Below are positions 1,819-64,000 of a stretch of 64,000 nt of DNA, one piece after another. The stretch lies in assembly GCF_050320075.1 (NCBI RefSeq), contig NZ_CP190018.1; one strand, written 5' to 3'. This DNA is from Escherichia coli (GTDB taxonomy: Bacteria > Pseudomonadota > Gammaproteobacteria > Enterobacterales > Enterobacteriaceae). The translations under genes and the position numbers were made by a program. The notes beneath the pieces were generated by a model that worked only from the letters and a program-made list of their open reading frames with translations, made no database searches and was not told the origin of the DNA. Position 1 is the stretch's first letter. Every line of letters starts with the position of its first letter.

Positions 1819-3023
1819 TAATCCACCAATAATTCCAGCGCGCGGTCAACGGCATTCACCAGCGCATCCACATCACTCTTTGTATTATATGGCGCAAAAG
1901 AGGCGCGCAGTGTGCCGGTTACGCCTAATTCTGCCAGTAGCGGCTGAGCGCAATGCTGCCCGGCCCGCAGGGCAATACCGTACTCCGCCAGCAGCGTCAC
2001 CATATCGCTGTGATGAACGCCAGCAAAATCAAAGGCCAGCAGGCTGGAATCCTGGCAGCGAAATGAGCGGAAGCCAGGACGTTTTGCCAGCGCATCTTCC
2101 GCTAGCGTTGCTAAGCTACGGCTCCAGCTTTCGGCCTGGTTGATATCGTAATCTGCCAGCCATTCCAGCGCCGCGCTTAATCCTATGACACCAGCGACAT
2201 TTGGCGTTCCGGCTTCCAGTTTCCACGGCGCAGATTGAGTCGTGAAGCCGTCAAAACTCACTTCGTGAATCATTTTGCCGCCACCCAGCCAGGGTGACAT
2301 CGCTTCCAGCAGTTCTGATTTGCCATACAGCACGCCGATACCCGTCGGGCCATACAGTTTGTGACCAGAGAAAGCATAGAAATCAATATCCAGTTGCTGA
2401 ACATCCGCAGGGAAATGCACCGCCCCCTGAGCACCATCAACCATCACCACCATCCCGGCTGAATGAGCAAAGGTAATCGCTCGCGCCAGATCCGGGCAAC
2501 CGCCAGTCACGTTCGACATCTGACCCAACGCCAGAATCCGACTACGGGGAGTAATCAGTTCTGGCAACAAATCGACATCCGGCAGTCGCTGCGCATTAAG
2601 CGGCAATTTCACCACTTTGGCTCCCGTTTGTTGGGCGACCATCAGCCAGGGGACGAGGTTGGCGTGGTGTTCTGCCACGCTGACAATAATCTCATCGCCC
2701 GGTTGCAGACGTGGACGCGCATAGCATTGTGCCACCATGTTGATGGATTCAGTGGTGCCGCGCGTCCAGACGATAGTTTTGTCATCTGGTGCATTCAGTA
2801 ATTGCGCCACTTTCTCTCGTGCAGCTTCATAACGCGCGGTCAGGCGTTGGGCTTCGGCAAACTGGCTGCGATGGACGTTTCCGGCGCTCAGGCTGTAAAA
2901 CTGTCGGGTGGCTTCAACCACGGCTTCAGGTTTAAGCGCGGTCGCGGCGCTGTCGAGATAGACGCCCGCATCCTGAAGTGCGGGAAACTGGGCGCGAAAC
3001 TGCGCGGGATTAAAAACGTTCAT
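1818..3023 (-). CDS. csdA: cysteine desulfurase CsdA (PLP-dependent)
   Basis: ORF 1818..3059; start placed at ATG 3021-3023 (MNVFNPAQF...) giving 401 aa; upstream extension likely an alternative-start artefact. Confidence 0.9.
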
Positions 3024-3211
3024 GGTACTCCTCGGCTTGATGAACCGATCGTGACGCAAAATTCACTTTGATACAAGGAGAGTGCTAACCATCAGAATTA
3101 TCTGGATATCCTGGCGAAGCCGCGTAAGTAACATATGCTGAATAGTGTTAGGCGTTAATTTTAGCCTGTTAATCAATACTATTAAGATTTATTAATCGCT
3201 TTAAGGAGAAG

Positions 3212-3442
3212 ATGATGAAAAAGACTGCCGCAATTATTTCTGCCTGTATGCTGACTTTTGCCCTGAGCGCCTGTTCCGGTTCGAACTATGTGATGCACAC
3301 CAATGACGGACGTACCATCGTCTCTGACGGCAAACCACAGACTGATAACGATACCGGTATGATTTCGTATAAAGACGCTAATGGCAACAAACAGCAGATC
3401 AACCGTACTGACGTGAAAGAGATGGTCGAACTGGATCAGTAA
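3212..3442 (+). CDS. ygdI: small lipoprotein (DUF903 family) with lipobox LSAC
   Basis: 76-aa ORF with signal peptide and lipobox cysteine (FALSACSGS); position between csdA and gcvB. Confidence 0.75.
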
Positions 3443-3458
3443 TTCGCGATCGCAAGGT

Positions 3459-3664
3459 AAAAAAAAGCACCGCAATTAGGCGGTGCTACATTAATCACTA
3501 TGGACAGACAGGGTAAATGTACAGGAAGTGAAAAAAGGTAGCTTTGCTACCATGGTCTGAATCGCAGACCAATTGCAAACACAACAACACAACATCACAA
3601 CCGTAAGCCAAAAGTTCACCAGAACACGCATTCCGATAAAACTTTTCGTTCCGGCTCAGGAAGT
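3459..3664 (-). ncRNA. gcvB: GcvB small regulatory RNA (Hfq-dependent, represses amino-acid and peptide transporters)
   Basis: Reverse complement begins ACTTCCTGAGCCGGAACGAAAAG and ends in hairpin GCACCGCCTAATTGCGGTGC plus T8; GU-rich stretch GTTGTGATGTTGTGTTGTTGTGTTTGC present; divergent from gcvA. Confidence 0.9.
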
Positions 3665-3792
3665 GCCGCCACTATAGGTATTTGCTGGTAGAAGCTCAAC
3701 GGACAATTTATAATGGCTCAGATTAAAAAAACTAATAGGTTACACAGTGTGATCTAATTGTTAAATTCATTTAACATCAAAGTTTAAAAGCC
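3665..3792. promoter_or_regulatory. divergent gcvB / gcvA promoter region
   Basis: 128-bp AT-rich interval between the gcvB 5' end and the gcvA start; location only, sites not mapped. Confidence 0.5.
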
Positions 3793-4710
3793 ATGTCTAA
3801 ACGATTACCACCGCTAAATGCCTTACGAGTTTTTGATGCCGCAGCACGCCATTTAAGTTTCACTCGCGCAGCAGAAGAGCTTTTTGTGACCCAGGCCGCA
3901 GTAAGTCATCAAATCAAGTCTCTTGAGGATTTTCTGGGGCTAAAACTGTTCCGCCGCCGTAATCGTTCACTCCTGCTGACCGAGGAAGGGCAAAGCTATT
4001 TCCTCGATATCAAAGAGATATTTTCGCAATTAACCGAAGCGACGCGTAAACTCCAGGCCCGTAGCGCCAAGGGGGCGTTGACGGTCAGTTTACTCCCCAG
4101 TTTCGCCATTCATTGGTTGGTTCCGCGACTTTCCAGCTTTAATTCAGCTTATCCGGGAATTGACGTTCGAATCCAGGCGGTTGATCGTCAGGAAGATAAG
4201 CTGGCGGATGATGTTGATGTGGCGATATTTTATGGTCGGGGCAACTGGCCGGGGCTACGGGTGGAAAAACTGTACGCCGAATATTTATTGCCGGTGTGTT
4301 CGCCGCTACTGCTGACTGGCGAAAAACCCTTGAAGACCCCGGAAGATCTGGCTAAACATACGTTATTACATGATGCGTCGCGCCGTGACTGGCAGACATA
4401 TACCCGACAGTTGGGGTTAAATCATATCAACGTTCAGCAAGGGCCAATTTTTAGCCATAGCGCCATGGTGCTGCAAGCGGCTATCCACGGGCAGGGAGTG
4501 GCGCTGGCAAATAACGTGATGGCGCAATCTGAAATTGAGGCTGGACGTCTTGTTTGCCCGTTTAATGATGTACTGGTCAGTAAAAACGCTTTTTATCTGG
4601 TTTGTCATGACAGCCAGGCAGAACTGGGTAAAATAGCCGCCTTTCGCCAATGGATCCTGGCGAAAGCCGCTGCTGAACAAGAAAAATTCCGCTTTCGTTA
4701 TGAACAATAA
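3793..4710 (+). CDS. gcvA: LysR-family transcriptional regulator of the glycine cleavage system
   Basis: 305-aa ORF with N-terminal LysR HTH (LNALRVFDAAARHLSFTRAAEELFVTQAAVSHQIKSLE); recognised as GcvA. Confidence 0.92.
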   Translation: MSKRLPPLNALRVFDAAARHLSFTRAAEELFVTQAAVSHQIKSLEDFLGLKLFRRRNRSLLLTEEGQSYFLDIKEIFSQLTEATRKLQARSAKGALTVSLLPSFAIHWLVPRLSSFNSAYPGIDVRIQAVDRQEDKLADDVDVAIFYGRGNWPGLRVEKLYAEYLLPVCSPLLLTGEKPLKTPEDLAKHTLLHDASRRDWQTYTRQLGLNHINVQQGPIFSHSAMVLQAAIHGQGVALANNVMAQSEIEAGRLVCPFNDVLVSKNAFYLVCHDSQAELGKIAAFRQWILAKAAAEQEKFRFRYEQ

Positions 4711-4728
4711 TTTACGTAGGGTACGACC

Positions 4729-5124
4729 ATGACCAGCCGTTTTATGCTGATTTTCGCCGCCATTAGCGGCTTCATTTTTGTGGCTCTGGGCGCTTTTGGC
4801 GCGCATGTGTTAAGTAAAACCATGGGGGCCGTTGAGATGGGCTGGATCCAGACCGGTCTCGAATATCAGGCGTTCCATACGCTGGCGATCTTAGGTCTGG
4901 CGGTGGCAATGCAGCGTCGCATCAGTATCTGGTTTTACTGGAGTAGCGTTTTCCTCGCGTTAGGCACGGTGCTGTTCAGCGGCAGCCTTTATTGCCTGGC
5001 GCTGTCCCATCTGCGTTTGTGGGCATTTGTCACACCGGTTGGCGGCGTGAGCTTCCTCGCGGGCTGGGCGTTAATGTTAGTTGGTGCTATCCGTTTAAAG
5101 CGCAAGGGCGTAAGTCATGAATAA
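4729..5124 (+). CDS. ygdD: DUF423 inner membrane protein
   Basis: 131-aa hydrophobic ORF with about four predicted TM segments; K-12-like position. Confidence 0.8.
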
Positions 5125-6217
5125 GGTTGTATTGCTGTGCCGTCCGGGCTTTGAAAAAGAGTGCGCCGCAGAAATTACCGATAAAGCCGGCCAGCGGGAA
5201 ATTTTCGGTTTTGCCCGCGTGAAAGAGAATGCGGGTTATGTCATTTATGAATGTTATCAACCTGATGATGGCGATAAGTTAATCCGTGAGCTGCCGTTCA
5301 GTTCATTAATTTTTGCCCGCCAGTGGTTTGTGGTGGGGGAACTCCTGCAGCATTTGCCGCCAGAAGATCGTATTACTCCCATTGTCGGCATGTTACAGGG
5401 CGTAGTAGAGAAGGGCGGTGAACTGCGTGTTGAAGTTGCCGATACCAACGAAAGCAAAGAGTTGCTGAAATTCTGCCGTAAATTCACCGTGCCGCTACGC
5501 GCTGCCTTGCGCGATGCGGGTGTGCTGGCGAACTATGAAACGCCGAAGCGTCCGGTTGTGCATGTATTCTTTATTGCACCAGGCTGCTGCTATACCGGTT
5601 ACTCATACAGCAACAATAATTCGCCGTTCTATATGGGCATTCCGCGCCTGAAATTTCCGGCAGATGCGCCGAGTCGTTCCACGCTCAAACTGGAAGAGGC
5701 ATTTCATGTGTTTATTCCTGCGGATGAGTGGGATGAACGCCTGGCGAACGGGATGTGGGCGGTGGATTTGGGCGCTTGCCCTGGTGGCTGGACCTACCAA
5801 CTGGTGAAGCGCAACATGTGGGTTTATTCCGTCGACAACGGCCCGATGGCGCAAAGTCTGATGGATACCGGGCAGGTGACGTGGCTGCGGGAAGATGGTT
5901 TCAAATTCCGTCCGACACGCAGCAATATTTCCTGGATGGTATGCGATATGGTTGAAAAACCGGCGAAAGTTGCGGCATTGATGGCGCAGTGGCTGGTTAA
6001 TGGCTGGTGCCGTGAAACCATTTTCAACCTCAAACTGCCGATGAAAAAACGCTACGAAGAAGTGTCACACAATCTGGCGTATATTCAGGCACAGCTTGAT
6101 GAACATGGCATAAATGCTCAGATTCAGGCGCGGCAGTTGTATCACGATCGCGAAGAAGTGACGGTGCACGTCCGCCGTATCTGGGCTGCGGTGGGTGGTC
6201 GTCGCGACGAGCGATAA
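5117..6217 (+). CDS. rlmM: 23S rRNA 2'-O-ribose C2498 methyltransferase
   Basis: 366-aa ORF recognised as RlmM (YgdE); 8-nt overlap with ygdD. Confidence 0.88.
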
Positions 6218-21833: not shown

Positions 21834-22200
21834 GTCGACAGGGAGTCAGACAACGAAGTGAACATCAGGATGATGACACTTCTGAAGGACACACCAGGAT
21901 GGTGTTTCAGGGAAAGGCTTCTGGATGAAGCGAAGAGGATGACGCAGGACGCGTTAAAGGACACCTCCAGGATGGAGAATGAGAACCGGTCAGGATGATT
22001 CGGTGGGTCAGGAAGGCCAGGGACACTTCAGGATGAAGTATCACATCGGGGTGGTGTGAGCAGGAAGCAATAGTTCAGGATGAACGATTGGCCGCAAGGC
22101 CAGAGGAAAAGTTGTCAAGGATGAGCAGGGAGCAACAAAAGTAGCTGGAATGCTGCGAAACGAACCGGGAGCACTGTGAATACAGTGCTCCCTTTTTTTA
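21834..22200 (+). ncRNA. csrB: CsrB sRNA (CsrA-sequestering)
   Basis: About 365 nt with reiterated CAGGATG/AGGATG/AGGA motifs (at least 8 exact AGGATG plus many GGA variants); ends in intrinsic terminator GGGAGCACTGTGAATACAGTGCTCCC plus T7 (22163-22199); 5' end approximate. Confidence 0.9.
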
Positions 22201-22244
22201 TTCCTGCTATCCTTCGCGGCAGTTTTTCTTATTGAGGTTGCTTT

Positions 22245-60342: not shown

Positions 60343-61077
60343 ATGTCCAAACTCGATCTAAACGCCCTGAACGAACTGCCGAAGGTAGATCGCATTCTGG
60401 CGCTGGCAGAAACTAACGCCGAACTGGAAAAACTGGACGCTGAAGGCCGCGTTGCCTGGGCGCTGGATAATCTGCCCGGTGAATATGTACTTTCTTCCAG
60501 TTTCGGCATTCAGGCGGCGGTGAGCCTGCATCTGGTGAATCAGATTCGCCCGGATATTCCAGTGATCCTCACCGATACGGGTTACTTGTTCCCGGAAACC
60601 TACCGCTTTATTGACGAGTTAACGGACAAACTCAAGCTCAACCTGAAAGTGTACCGCGCTACCGAAAGCGCCGCCTGGCAGGAAGCACGTTACGGAAAAC
60701 TGTGGGAGCAGGGTGTTGAAGGCATTGAAAAGTACAATGACATCAACAAAGTCGAACCGATGAACCGGGCGCTGAAAGAACTGAATGCGCAAACCTGGTT
60801 TGCTGGCCTGCGCCGTGAACAATCCGGCAGCCGCACCAATTTACCGGTGCTGGCAATTCAGCGTGGCGTATTTAAAGTGCTGCCGATTATCGACTGGGAT
60901 AACCGAACTATTTATCAGTACCTGCAAAAACATGGCCTGAAATATCACCCATTATGGGATGAAGGATATTTATCGGTCGGTGATACCCATACAACCCGTA
61001 AATGGGAACCCGGCATGGCGGAAGAAGAAACGCGTTTCTTTGGCTTAAAAAGAGAATGTGGGTTACACGAAGGGTAA
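60343..61077 (+). CDS. cysH: phosphoadenosine phosphosulfate (PAPS) reductase
   Basis: ORF 60190..61077; start placed at [12 protein letters not shown] giving 244 aa; upstream extension overlaps the REP and is rejected. Confidence 0.93.
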
Positions 61078-61094
61078 ATATTGCCGGATAAATT

Positions 61095-61128
61095 AAACGC
61101 CTCTGTCAGAAATGATGGGGGCGTTTTT
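61095..61128 (+). terminator. putative terminator after cysH
   Basis: AAACGCC...GGCGTTT stem with TTTTT run; loop is long, so only moderate support. Confidence 0.4.
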
Positions 61129-61341
61129 ATTTTGCGAGCAGCATTCCTGATTTTAAACGTGAACGCCGCTGGAAGAATTATCAGGTATAGAATGGCGTTG
61201 GGTGCTTGAGGCTGTCTGGCGTTAAGCATTCGCGAGGTTCCAGATGGACAAAAGCCCCAGGCGATATTTCTATCAACCTGAGGCCAGCGTTCGAACCTAA
61301 GCAATTCGAATGTTAGTCTCTTCTTTGCAGGGAGGCAAGAC

Positions 61342-61494
61342 ATGCTGACAAAATATGCCCTTGTGGCAATCATCGTACTGTGTTGTACAGTACTGGGATT
61401 CACGCTGATGGTAGGCGACTCGTTGTGTGAGTTGAGTATCAGAGAACGTGGTATGGAGTTTAAGGCAGTTCTCGCTTACGAATCGAAGAAGTAG
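61342..61494 (+). CDS. Hok-family type I toxin (50 aa, HokE/HokX-like)
   Basis: ATG 61342 preceded by GGGAGG; product [50 protein letters not shown] has one TM helix and the conserved Hok C-terminal region; below the ORF-track size cutoff. Confidence 0.8.
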
Positions 61495-61688
61495 CCACCA
61501 CGCGGGGGTAAAACCCCGCGTATTGAATTGTGATGGTTTGGTCTCCTGCACCCTTTTTTAATTTATATTGTTTATGTGAATATTATGCCTATGTTTATTA
61601 TTCATATATATTACGGATGAAAATTATTTGATTATTCATAATGTAAATATTTTATTGAACGATATATATCACAGATAATTTTTAATAT
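61495..61688 (+). promoter_or_regulatory. AT-rich cas3 upstream region
   Basis: About 190 bp of more than 75 percent A+T immediately upstream of cas3; expected H-NS-silenced promoter from established knowledge of I-E cas loci. Confidence 0.4.
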
Positions 61689-64000
61689 ATGCGTAAATAT
61701 CCTTTAAGTTTACTGAAGGATAAAAATATTGTGACTTTTTTTGATTTCTGGGGAAAAACCCGACGCGGCGAGAAAGACGGGGGCGACGACTATCACCTTC
61801 TTTGCTGGCATTCGCTGGATGTAGCCGCGATGGGCTATTTAATGGTTAAAAGCAATTGCTTCGGGCTGACTGACTATTTTCGTCAACTAGGTTTCGCTGA
61901 TACGGAGCAGGCAGCACAATTTTTCGCCTGGCTATTGTGCTGGCACGATACTGGAAAATTTGCCCGCTCTTTTCAGCAACTTTACCTGCACCCACAACTC
62001 AAGGTTCCGGAAGGCGCAAGAAAGAATTACGAAAAGATCTCTCATTCAACGCTGGGCTACTGGCTGTGGCATCATTATTTAAGTGAATACGAAGAATTGC
62101 TTCCTTCATCTTCACTCTCTCCGCGCAAACTTAAACGGGTGATGGAGATGTGGATGCCCATGACTACCGGGCATCATGGTCGGCCCCCTGACCGTATTGA
62201 TGAACTGGATAATTTTCTGCCTGAAGACAAAGCTGCCGCACGAGATTTTCTCCTTGAAATCAAGGTACTGTTTCCGCTCATCGAGATCCCCGCATTCTGG
62301 GATGATGACGAGGGCATTGAACTTTTAAAACAACTTTCCTGGTATATCTCTGCAACCGTCGTACTCGCAGACTGGACGGGATCGTCAACGCGGTTTTTTC
62401 CACGCGTTGCACAGGCAATGGATATTAAAGATTACTGGCAGAAGGCTTTAGTTCAGGCTCAAAACGCCTTAACCGTCTTTCCTCCAAAAGCACAAACCGC
62501 GCCTTTCACCGGAATTAATACGCTGTTTCCTTTTATTGAGCACCCGACACCGTTACAGCAAAAGGTGCTGGATCTGGATATCAGCCAGCCTGGGCCACAG
62601 TTATTTATTCTGGAGGATGTGACTGGCGCAGGTAAAACAGAAGCGGCGCTTATCCTGGCCCACAGGTTGATGGCTGCGGGGAAAGCACAGGGTTTGTTTT
62701 TTGGCCTGCCAACAATGGCAACGGCCAATGCCATGTACGATCGGCTGGTAAAAACCTGGCTTGCTTTCTATTCGCCAGAATCCCGCCCCAGCCTGGTGCT
62801 GGCACACAGTGCCCGCACATTAATGGACCGCTTTAATGAATCACTCTGGTCCGGTGATTTAGTCGGGTCAGAAGAACCGGATGAACAAGCGTTCAGTCAG
62901 GGATGTGCGGCCTGGTTTGCCGACAGTAACAAGAAGGCGTTGCTGGCTGAAATTGGCGTCGGCACGCTGGATCAGGCGATGATGGCGGTGATGCCGTTTA
63001 AACATAATAATCTGCGGCTTCTGGGACTGAGTAACAAAATCCTGCTGGCTGATGAGATCCATGCCTGTGACGCTTACATGTCGTGCATTCTTGAAGGATT
63101 GATTGAGCGGCAGGCGCGTGGAGGAAACAGCGTTATTTTGCTTTCTGCCACGTTATCTCAACAGCAGCGCGACAAACTCGTTGCTGCCTTTGCGCGTGGT
63201 GCAGAGGGCCAGCAAGAAGCTCCGTTCCTGGAAAAGGATGATTACCCCTGGCTGACGCACGTTACGAAATCGGATGTGCATTCACACCGGGTAGCAACGC
63301 GCAAAGACGTTGAGCGTAGCGTGAGCGTGGGTTGGCTTCATAGCGAACAAGAATGTATTGCGCGTATCGAATCGGCAGTAAGTCAGGGGAAATGCATCGC
63401 CTGGATCCGGAATTCTGTCGATGACGCTATTAAGGTTTATCGTCAGTTGCTTGCCCGCGGCGTCATTCCTGCTTCCAGCCTTTCTCTGTTTCATAGCCGC
63501 TTTGCTTTTAGCGATCGCCAGCGAATTGAAACGGAAACGCTGGCACGCTTCGGTAAAAGTTGTAGTTTACAGAGATCATCGCAAGTCATTGTTTGTACAC
63601 AAGTAATTGAACAAAGTGTGGATATTGACCTGGACGAAATGATATCCGACCTGGCCCCTGTTGATTTGCTGATCCAACGGGCGGGGCGATTACAGCGGCA
63701 TATCCGCGATATTAATGGTCAGTTAAAGCGTGACGGAAAAGACGAGCGTTCCCCTCCTGAATTGCTGATTCTGGCCCCCGTCTGGGACGACGCTCCAGGT
63801 GACGAATGGTTCGGCAGTGCCATGCGTAACAGTGCATATGTCTATCCCGATCATGGACGAATCTGGCTGACGCAGCGTGTACTGCGTGAGCAAGGCGCGA
63901 TTCAAATGCCACACGCAGCCCGCCTTCTTATTGAATCAGTCTACGGTGAGGACGTGGTAATGCCGGAAGGATTTGCCCGCAGCGAGCAGGAACAAGTGGG
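61689..64000 (+). CDS. cas3: type I-E Cas3 (HD nuclease plus DExH helicase), 3' end outside window
   Basis: Frame open from ATG 61689 (alternative GTG 61731 with AGGA upstream) to the window end; HD-domain motifs (HLLCWHSLDVAAMG, LLCWHDTGKF), Walker A GAGKTEAA, DExH-like LADEIHACD. Confidence 0.9.
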   Translation, partial: MRKYPLSLLKDKNIVTFFDFWGKTRRGEKDGGDDYHLLCWHSLDVAAMGYLMVKSNCFGLTDYFRQLGFADTEQAAQFFAWLLCWHDTGKFARSFQQLYLHPQLKVPEGARKNYEKISHSTLGYWLWHHYLSEYEELLPSSSLSPRKLKRVMEMWMPMTTGHHGRPPDRIDELDNFLPEDKAAARDFLLEIKVLFPLIEIPAFWDDDEGIELLKQLSWYISATVVLADWTGSSTRFFPRVAQAMDIKDYWQKALVQAQNALTVFPPKAQTAPFTGINTLFPFIEHPTPLQQKVLDLDISQPGPQLFILEDVTGAGKTEAALILAHRLMAAGKAQGLFFGLPTMATANAMYDRLVKTWLAFYSPESRPSLVLAHSARTLMDRFNESLWSGDLVGSEEPDEQAFSQGCAAWFADSNKKALLAEIGVGTLDQAMMAVMPFKHNNLRLLGLSNKILLADEIHACDAYMSCILEGLIERQARGGNSVILLSATLSQQQRDKLVAAFARGAEGQQEAPFLEKDDYPWLTHVTKSDVHSHRVATRKDVERSVSVGWLHSEQECIARIESAVSQGKCIAWIRNSVDDAIKVYRQLLARGVIPASSLSLFHSRFAFSDRQRIETETLARFGKSCSLQRSSQVIVCTQVIEQSVDIDLDEMISDLAPVDLLIQRAGRLQRHIRDINGQLKRDGKDERSPPELLILAPVWDDAPGDEWFGSAMRNSAYVYPDHGRIWLTQRVLREQGAIQMPHAARLLIESVYGEDVVMPEGFARSEQEQV

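Follow-up and report, generated by a model that had tools for sequence, protein, structure and literature searches.

The hok/sok system of plasmid R1 is controlled through closure of the mRNA by pairing between a 5' tac and a 3' fbi (fold-back inhibitory) element, 3' processing to a capped mRNA, a leader ORF (mok) for hok translation, and a Sok antisense RNA whose tail recognizes a loop. The R1 mok gene has 70 codons and a GAGG Shine-Dalgarno sequence, and overlaps nearly all of hok, and mutagenesis in R1 showed that translation of mok is required only up to the hok Shine-Dalgarno sequence. [quoted passage not shown] For Escherichia coli, all strains but those with the K-12-type cas variant, cas-E2, were reported to carry a hok sok system in the CRISPR-I region on the cysH side (Almendros et al., 2014), and the link of this locus to the variable CRISPR-I region has already been described in the literature. 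A 2025 study found hok together with sokX beside cysH in 90% of urinary isolates, the rest carrying sokX alone as in K-12, and a study of AIEC referred to the locus as hokX, which was first seen in E. coli B and is inactivated there by an insertion element.

The window analyzed here is a stretch of 64,000 nucleotides of E. coli DNA, in which a small ORF lies downstream of cysH (ending at 61077; its terminator was predicted by a promoter and terminator scan at 61095-61126) and upstream of type I-E cas3 (PGAP start at 61689). The flanking genes are named after their annotation in an E. coli chromosome with 100% identity across 61078-61740, where PGAP places a "Hok/Gef family protein" (WP_000956458.1) at the position of the ORF. 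A reading of the sequence alone had proposed that an intact type I toxin locus of the hok family lies between cysH and cas3, and this proposal stands, with "intact" referring to the sequence level. Every canonical hok/sok element can be placed at the locus (Table 1). According to the best explanation, which is highly probable, this is hokX/sokX, the type I toxin-antitoxin locus that E. coli carries on its chromosome beside cysH, complete in its sequence.

The comparison with the described systems is as follows. In E. coli O157:H7, the hokX/sokX locus encodes a peptide identical to that in the window and has the same position between cysH and the CRISPR-I region. The closest paralogue is hokE/sokE, with 40 of 50 residues identical and ~79% DNA identity over the mRNA, and it shares with hokX the tac element, Sok promoter, Sok-target hairpin, 3' hairpin, fbi layout, and a TACG motif at codon 46. 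It differs in adjoining entD and in a 4-nt insertion, through which its leader AUG shares the reading frame of hok; the hokX leader, by contrast, is an ORF of 12 codons in the +1 frame. A chromosomal Hok/Gef locus of Klebsiella pneumoniae (CP125156.1), which adjoins mutS, has 83% DNA identity over 90% of the mRNA and 43 of 50 identical residues, and likewise carries a 12-codon leader ORF and tac/fbi elements. The features of R1 outlined above recur at hokX as judged from sequence and predicted folds, although R1 hok/sok is located on a plasmid and hokX on the chromosome, and the hokX leader ORF differs from R1 mok in its length, its frame, and its weak Shine-Dalgarno sequence.

Table 1. Features of the hokX/sokX locus, with positions in the window (nt, positions counted from the 5' end of the mRNA where stated).
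Feature	Position	Strand	Remarks
Probable -10 box (TAGAAT) of the hokX promoter	61188-61193	+	6 nt upstream of the GGGTGC 5' end
hokX mRNA (probable ends)	61200-61559	+	5' end at G61200; 3' end at ~61554-61559, at a T6 run
tac element GGGUGCUUGAGGCU	61200-61213	+	Pairs with fbi in the full-length RNA; predicted local hairpin (nt 1-10 with 23-32) after 3' truncation
Rfam RF01794 "sok" match	61200-61357	+	111.7 bits (gathering score 59), E = 1.4e-24, model positions 1-157 of 157
SokX antisense RNA, 59 nt	61244-61302	-	MG1655 sokX (b4701) transferred by alignment; single-stranded 5' tail, strong hairpin, UUUUGU
Upstream ORF, 18 codons	61244-61300	+	GAGG Shine-Dalgarno sequence; same frame as the leader ORF; second candidate start at 61244
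Sok-target hairpin	61290-61310	+	UUCGAA/UUCGAA stem (61290-61295 with 61305-61310); 9-nt loop CCUAAGCAA at 61296-61304
Probable Sok promoter	61310-61338	-	-35 TTGCCT (61338-61333), 17-nt spacer, -10 TAACAT (61315-61310)
Candidate mok-equivalent leader ORF, 12 codons	61310-61348	+	Spans the hok Shine-Dalgarno sequence; TGA stop overlaps the hok ATG (AUGCUGA)
hok Shine-Dalgarno sequence (GGAGG)	61331-61335	+	6 nt before ATG; invariant in the homologue alignment; overlaps the Sok -35 box on the other strand
hokX (HokG) CDS	61342-61494	+	50 aa, ATG start, TAG stop; one N-terminal transmembrane helix; Cys14, Cys15, Cys29, Tyr46
TACG motif at codon Tyr46	61477-61480	+	Candidate TadA A-to-I site (A61478, Tyr46 to Cys); invariant in all homologues
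GC-rich 8-bp hairpin ACGCGGGG-GUAAAA-CCCCGCGU	61500-61521	+	96% paired, 2 compensatory pairs
3' segment pairing with 61293-61309	61523-61539	+	Helix 3 91% paired, 2 compensatory pairs; helix 2 only 62% paired
fbi element GGUCUCCUGCACCC	61540-61553	+	Pairs with the 5' tac element; followed by T6 at 61554-61559

The HokX toxin and its gene

The 50-codon ORF had been taken to encode a Hok-like peptide with a good Shine-Dalgarno sequence, and both parts were borne out by the GGAGG motif and by a match to HOK_GEF (PF01848, E = 6.3e-10), in which residues 5-46 of HokX cover model positions 1-42 of 42. The peptide also matched PHROG 251, "MokW-like host killing" (E = 8e-12), and contained a single hydrophobic segment (residues 6-24, mean Kyte-Doolittle value 2.76) followed by polar residues 25-50. 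HokX thus has the length of ~50 aa, the single N-terminal transmembrane helix, and the polar C-terminal (periplasmic) part expected of the Hok/Gef family, as well as the expected Cys29; at position 46, where Cys or an editable Tyr is expected, it has Tyr with the codon context TAC-G. Its scores were below the curated NCBIfam cut-offs for HokA (NF007290, 53 vs. 89 bits) and for the Hok subfamily NF007279 (39.5 vs. 73 bits); HokX is a member of the Hok family that belongs to neither of these two groups, and it clusters with HokE/HokX (cluster 46 of the preprint 10.1101/2025.08.07.668861). The exact peptide was present on at least 1000 contigs under the names Hok/Gef family protein or "Putative protein HokG" (HOKG_ECO57), HokG being the UniProt name of the hokX protein. 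The hokX coding sequence differed from the O157 allele by five synonymous and no non-synonymous changes, and its dN/dS against paralogues was ~0.2, which points to purifying selection on the peptide. An in-frame N-terminal extension of hok was considered for the window allele and rejected, as TGA at 61278-61280 is followed by no later start codon.

An identical peptide (46_982, plasmid LRP171) was included among 45 Hok homologues that were induced from an arabinose promoter, and was absent from the three non-toxic sequences of that panel (10.1101/2025.08.07.668861). Thus, the toxicity test that had been proposed from the sequence alone has in effect been done. The hokX mRNA is likely edited at codon 46, given the shared TACG motif, and by analogy with hokE such TadA editing of Tyr46 to Cys may tune the toxicity of HokX. 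The motif was located in the loop of the MFE fold when a tRNA-like hairpin around TACG was sought, but this hairpin was not significant (z = -0.09).

The hokX mRNA, SokX, and the leader ORFs

The ends of the hokX mRNA were placed from the start of the RF01794 match (61200) and from the block that is common to E. coli genomes with differing downstream regions, which ends at ~61560. A TAGAAT or TAAGAT box was found at a fixed distance from GGGTGC in all eight aligned hok loci. The full-length RNA (61200-61554) had an MFE of -128.9 kcal/mol (z = -3.2), and none of 100 shuffled sequences was as stable. In this predicted fold, nt 1-6 and 9-14 paired with nt 349-354 and 341-346, respectively, corresponding to the tac/fbi pairing, and nt 94-110 (61293-61309), which comprise the Sok target and the leader start region, paired with nt 324-340. 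The fbi position was constant in every homologue, at 35-60 nt past the stop codon. The best duplex between the 5' and 3' ends (-22.3 kcal/mol) was no better than those of shuffled 5' ends, 18% of which were as good; because duplex energy alone is therefore no evidence, the tac/fbi assignment rests on the conserved position and on pairing across homologues.

This pairing was assessed in a structure alignment of seven homologues, consisting of three hokX alleles, the Klebsiella locus, two hokE copies, and hok of an IncFII plasmid. The long-range structure was 88% paired, compared to 33-50% with slid partners, and the tac/fbi helix was 90% paired. The local hairpins were also 90% paired with 16 compensatory pairs, a level that none of 500 shuffles reached; these included the local tac stem (90%, 2 compensatory pairs), the Sok-target hairpin (80%, 6 compensatory pairs; z = -3.6), and the SokX hairpin (96%, 6 compensatory pairs), all counts that lean towards the structure, since the window sequence itself supplied the structures under test and three of the seven aligned rows are almost the same.

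The GC-rich stretch CCACCACGCGGGGGTAAAACCCCGCGT that follows the ORF (61495-61521) had been described as a fold-back region. It is present and folds into a hairpin, but the label does not apply, as the element that pairs with the 5' end is the segment at 61540-61553. By analogy with R1, the GC-rich hairpin is instead expected to be the stem-loop that caps the 3'-processed mRNA. When the RNA was cut in silico to this hairpin (61200-61528), the predicted probability that the Sok-target loop is unpaired increased from 0.34 to 0.96, the partner of the 5' end shifted from nt 341-354 to nt 23-32, and the Sok-target hairpin formed. The loop of this hairpin contains the YUNR motif CUAA (61297-61300), which is complementary to the 5' tail of SokX. 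The predicted refolding reproduces the hok/sok scheme of R1.

The homologues in hokE, Klebsiella, and the plasmid have a hairpin terminator after fbi, whereas in hokX no local terminator hairpin was found before the T6 run at 61554 (z = +0.56). The stretch upstream of cas3 is AT-rich, with 17-21% GC at 61550-61750, and the hokX transcript might read through towards it.

The Sok RNA and a candidate mok-type frame, both of which had escaped identification in the sequence-only reading, were located. K-12 aligns without gaps over 61078-61344, and the coordinates of sokX (NC_000913.3, 2887353-2887411) therefore carry over exactly to the minus strand of the window, from 61302 to 61244. The resulting RNA, GCUUAGGUUCGAACGCUGGCCUCAGGUUGAUAGAAAUAUCGCCUGGGGCUUUUGUCCAU, differs at two positions from K-12 sokX; K-12 itself lacks hok. 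It was predicted to fold with -22.7 kcal/mol (z = -3.6) into a 5' tail, a strong terminator hairpin, and a U-rich end. SokX is reportedly described in work by Kawano et al. from 2005 and by Fozo et al. from 2008. The start at 61302 is 7 nt downstream of the probable -10 box, which reads TAACAT, TACCAT, or TACAAT in homologues, and the complement of the -35 box, GGAGGCAA, is the invariant hok ribosome-binding sequence. A consensus scan for promoters and terminators returned only the cysH terminator and missed both the Sok and the hok promoters; consequently, both were placed from conservation and from the K-12 sokX start.

A search with a hok/sok RNA model, as had been suggested, returned RF01794 well above its gathering score. 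This match is on the hok-sense strand, and the annotated K-12 sokX is on the opposite strand, inside the match. The 157-nt model extends from the conserved GGGUGC 5' end to the start of hok; therefore, RF01794 is in practice a model of the hok mRNA leader. A permissive Rfam search of 61000-61800 otherwise yielded only sub-threshold matches on the cysH terminator.

A long mok of the R1 type was rejected, as the frame that mok occupies in R1 relative to hok lacks any start codon ahead of hok in the window. Each of the four hokX alleles compared, as well as the Klebsiella homologue, contains the 12-codon leader ORF, whose start at mRNA position +111 is close to that of R1 mok (+116). Since R1 mok needs to be translated only up to the hok Shine-Dalgarno sequence, a reach that the leader ORF has, the latter could fill the role of mok. 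Its own Shine-Dalgarno sequence is weak (UAAG), its AUG was paired in the predicted 3'-truncated fold (probability of being unpaired, 0.03), its frame and length are unlike those of R1 mok, and the upstream ORF provides a second candidate start. The upstream and leader ORFs are fused into 34 codons in E. coli B and K-12, which have CAA in place of the TAA at 61298 that splits the window allele into 18 and 12 codons. The upstream ORF is missing from the Klebsiella homologue.

Distribution and alternative readings

Some part of 61186-61560 was matched in 5415 of 5426 complete E. coli genomes, and at least 80% of the locus in 4146 of them (76%). Approximately a fifth (about 22%) were K-12-like and had kept the leader and sokX alone, their homology breaking off precisely at the hok ATG (61344). 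The state of hokX in relation to cas type was estimated from evenly spaced samples of the match lists, and some genomes were without both hok and cas3. In E. coli B, IS421 is inserted after 61516 and cuts off fbi, and the peptide carries a C15F change. Near-full-length matches labeled as plasmids were megabase-sized, chromosome-like records, and true plasmids had only partial, hokE-type matches (~79% identity); an IncFII plasmid hok was represented by one 45-nt match in the plasmid search. No relatives were found among 50,697 phage records.

It is conceivable, though judged somewhat improbable, that the locus is physiologically silent despite its complete sequence, a conserved relic that never sets its toxin free in nature and is kept by hitch-hiking or for the SokX/leader RNA alone. 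The loss of hok with retention of leader and sokX in K-12-type genomes and the severed fbi in E. coli B are in line with such silence, as are the weak Shine-Dalgarno sequence of the leader ORF and the low transcription of the region in O157. Chromosomal hokA, hokB, and hokC were also described as lacking post-segregational killing and activation by rifampicin. However, the peptide appears to be under purifying selection, all regulatory elements are conserved and show compensatory changes, about three quarters of the genomes still carry the locus in complete or near-complete form, and the identical peptide is toxic on induction (10.1101/2025.08.07.668861).

It is very unlikely that hokX works together with the CRISPR-Cas system beside it, whether as part of a defence island, as an abortive-infection back-up, or as an addiction module that stabilizes cas. 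The gene is directly upstream of cas3 on the same strand with no hairpin terminator in between, and R1 hok/sok is reported to exclude phage T4. Nevertheless, E. coli B, a strain devoid of cas genes, has the locus beside cysH, cas3 is inverted next to the locus in another strain, and only strains with the cas-E2 variant were reported to lack the system (Almendros et al., 2014). Moreover, its closest paralogues adjoin entD (hokE) or mutS (Klebsiella) rather than defence genes, the HokX peptide had no PADLOC match, and in a 2026 genome-wide survey 12% of hok genes were located within 20 kb of a defence system, compared to 9.4% at random. The earlier suggestion that a module of this kind, when it adjoins a cas operon, is a typical neighbor in defence islands is thus not supported: the locus follows cysH and not cas, hok is not enriched near defence systems, and the adjacency of cas3 does not make hokX a defence-island gene.

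The notion that the ORF arose by chance and is not a hok gene has practically no credibility, as 50-codon ORFs may be common (65 ORFs of at least 20 aa in 4 kb) but this one is refuted as a chance intergenic ORF by its Pfam (E = 6e-10), Rfam (E = 1e-24), and PHROG 251 (E = 8e-12) matches, by the identical annotated proteins on at least 1000 contigs, and by purifying selection.

Proposed control of HokX and implications

Taking the locus as a complete hokX/sokX system, its control may be pictured as follows. A weakly expressed mRNA of ~355 nt (61200 to ~61554) would code for HokX, a membrane toxin of 50 aa. As long as the mRNA has its full length, the tac-fbi pairing, together with the pairing of the Sok target and leader start with 61523-61539, would make it inaccessible to ribosomes as well as to Sok. 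Its 3' end would be slowly trimmed to the GC-rich hairpin, a step modeled on R1 that would remove fbi, so that the 5' end would refold into its local hairpin and the Sok-target hairpin would form with its CUAA loop exposed. SokX would be transcribed separately, from a promoter of its own overlapping the hok ribosome-binding site, and through its 5' tail would bind the loop, block the start region of the leader ORF, and mark the duplex for RNase III, whose cleavage is assumed from R1. Once Sok is exhausted, the leader ORF would be translated through the hok Shine-Dalgarno sequence to the UGA on the hok AUG, and hok would then be translated, a coupling that again follows R1. HokX would enter the inner membrane and stop growth, which agrees with the toxicity reported for the identical peptide.

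A more speculative idea, to which little probability is given, is that the hokX/hokE subfamily has swapped a long overlapping mok for a minimal coupling device, which in hokX would be the 12-codon ORF with termination and reinitiation at AUGCUGA, and in hokE the corresponding start fused in frame to hok; separately, without a hairpin terminator after fbi, read-through into the AT-rich stretch upstream of cas3 might link the expression of the toxin-antitoxin locus with that of cas3.

The locus is already known: it has been named in the literature, is annotated by PGAP, and occurs in most E. coli, and the toxicity of its peptide has already been assayed. It therefore carries little weight as a discovery, and the practical gain is a coordinate map of the regulatory elements for the allele in the window. 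For annotators of hok/sok loci, these results also suggest caution, as the Rfam "sok" model marks the hok-sense leader and not the Sok strand.

hokX in other Escherichia coli genomes

The alignment between the window and the K-12 locus ended precisely after the hok ATG, with the junction at 61344/61345 (positions 2767/2768 of the K-12 locus). In K-12, the hok coding sequence was replaced by the region upstream of the K-12-type cas3, and an orphan leader and sokX remained. The E. coli B locus harbored an IS421 element (IS4 family; 3439-4722 of that locus) at the equivalent of window position 61516, within the GC-rich hairpin downstream of the hok stop codon, and this insertion severed fbi, the element that pairs with the 5' end of the mRNA, from hokX. 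Downstream, E. coli B contained only a CRISPR remnant and iap, without cas genes.

In WP8-S18-CRE-02, cas3 (3481-6177 of its locus) was located on the opposite strand, immediately after the T-run of hokX, and the common hokX block stopped at window position ~61560, which places a junction of cas-module rearrangement right at the 3' end of the hok mRNA. NCCP 13918 (3001-3251 of its locus) retained just the first 85 nt past cysH; hokX/sokX and cas3 were deleted, and a short pseudogene fragment was followed by casA. An IS1A copy was also observed inside the 61078-61740 interval of NZ_CP180393.1 (1598383-1599822), a genome that was otherwise 100% identical.

No hairpin terminator was found after fbi in 61554-61750, where only the T6 run was present. 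Past this run, the GC content was 17-21% in a stretch that extended to and beyond the cas3 start at 61689, and this AT-rich composition resembles that of a silenced, H-NS-type promoter region.

Leader frames and antisense RNA models

The Rfam model RF01794 ("sok antitoxin") matched the hok-sense strand and covered the entire 157-nt leader of the hok mRNA, whereas the annotated sokX of K-12 lies on the opposite strand; the antitoxin would therefore be mislabelled if its strand were taken from RF01794 alone.

Features of the hokX/sokX locus (window positions)
Feature	Position	Strand	Basis
RF01794 match	61200-61357	+	Rfam model
Equivalent of K-12 sokX	61244-61302	-	K-12 annotation
Upstream ORF, 18 codons	61244-61300	+	good GAGG Shine-Dalgarno
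Candidate TadA A-to-I editing motif (Tyr46 codon TAC, then G)	61477-61480	+	sequence motif

The upstream ORF overlapped the SokX-complementary stretch almost exactly. In the B and K-12 alleles, a TAA to CAA change at 61298 joined this ORF to the 12-codon leader ORF, and the same substitutions that fuse the ORFs removed the U from the YUNR motif in the loop. The paralogous hokE beside entD was a tandem duplicate (1094-1246 and 1597-1749 of that locus), and in both copies a leader AUG lay in the hok frame, forming a 12-residue N-terminal extension; a 1-nt indel between the copies shifted the frame of another upstream AUG.

The Rfam model ctRNA_p42d matched the cysH terminator hairpin (61093-61135, +) below threshold, at 24.9 bits where the gathering score is 50, most likely through a chance likeness of the terminator. 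Elsewhere, the window contained full-length sRNA genes for CsrB (21843-22202, +; 382.9 bits) and GcvB (3459-3664, -; 199 bits), which together with cysJIH fit a segment of the E. coli chromosome.

A candidate editing motif at Tyr46

All seven hok loci in the alignment carried the TAC-G motif at codon 46 unchanged. A Cys29-Cys46 disulfide has been described in HokB, and TadA editing of the Tyr46 codon would yield the Cys46 that is required for a disulfide of this type.
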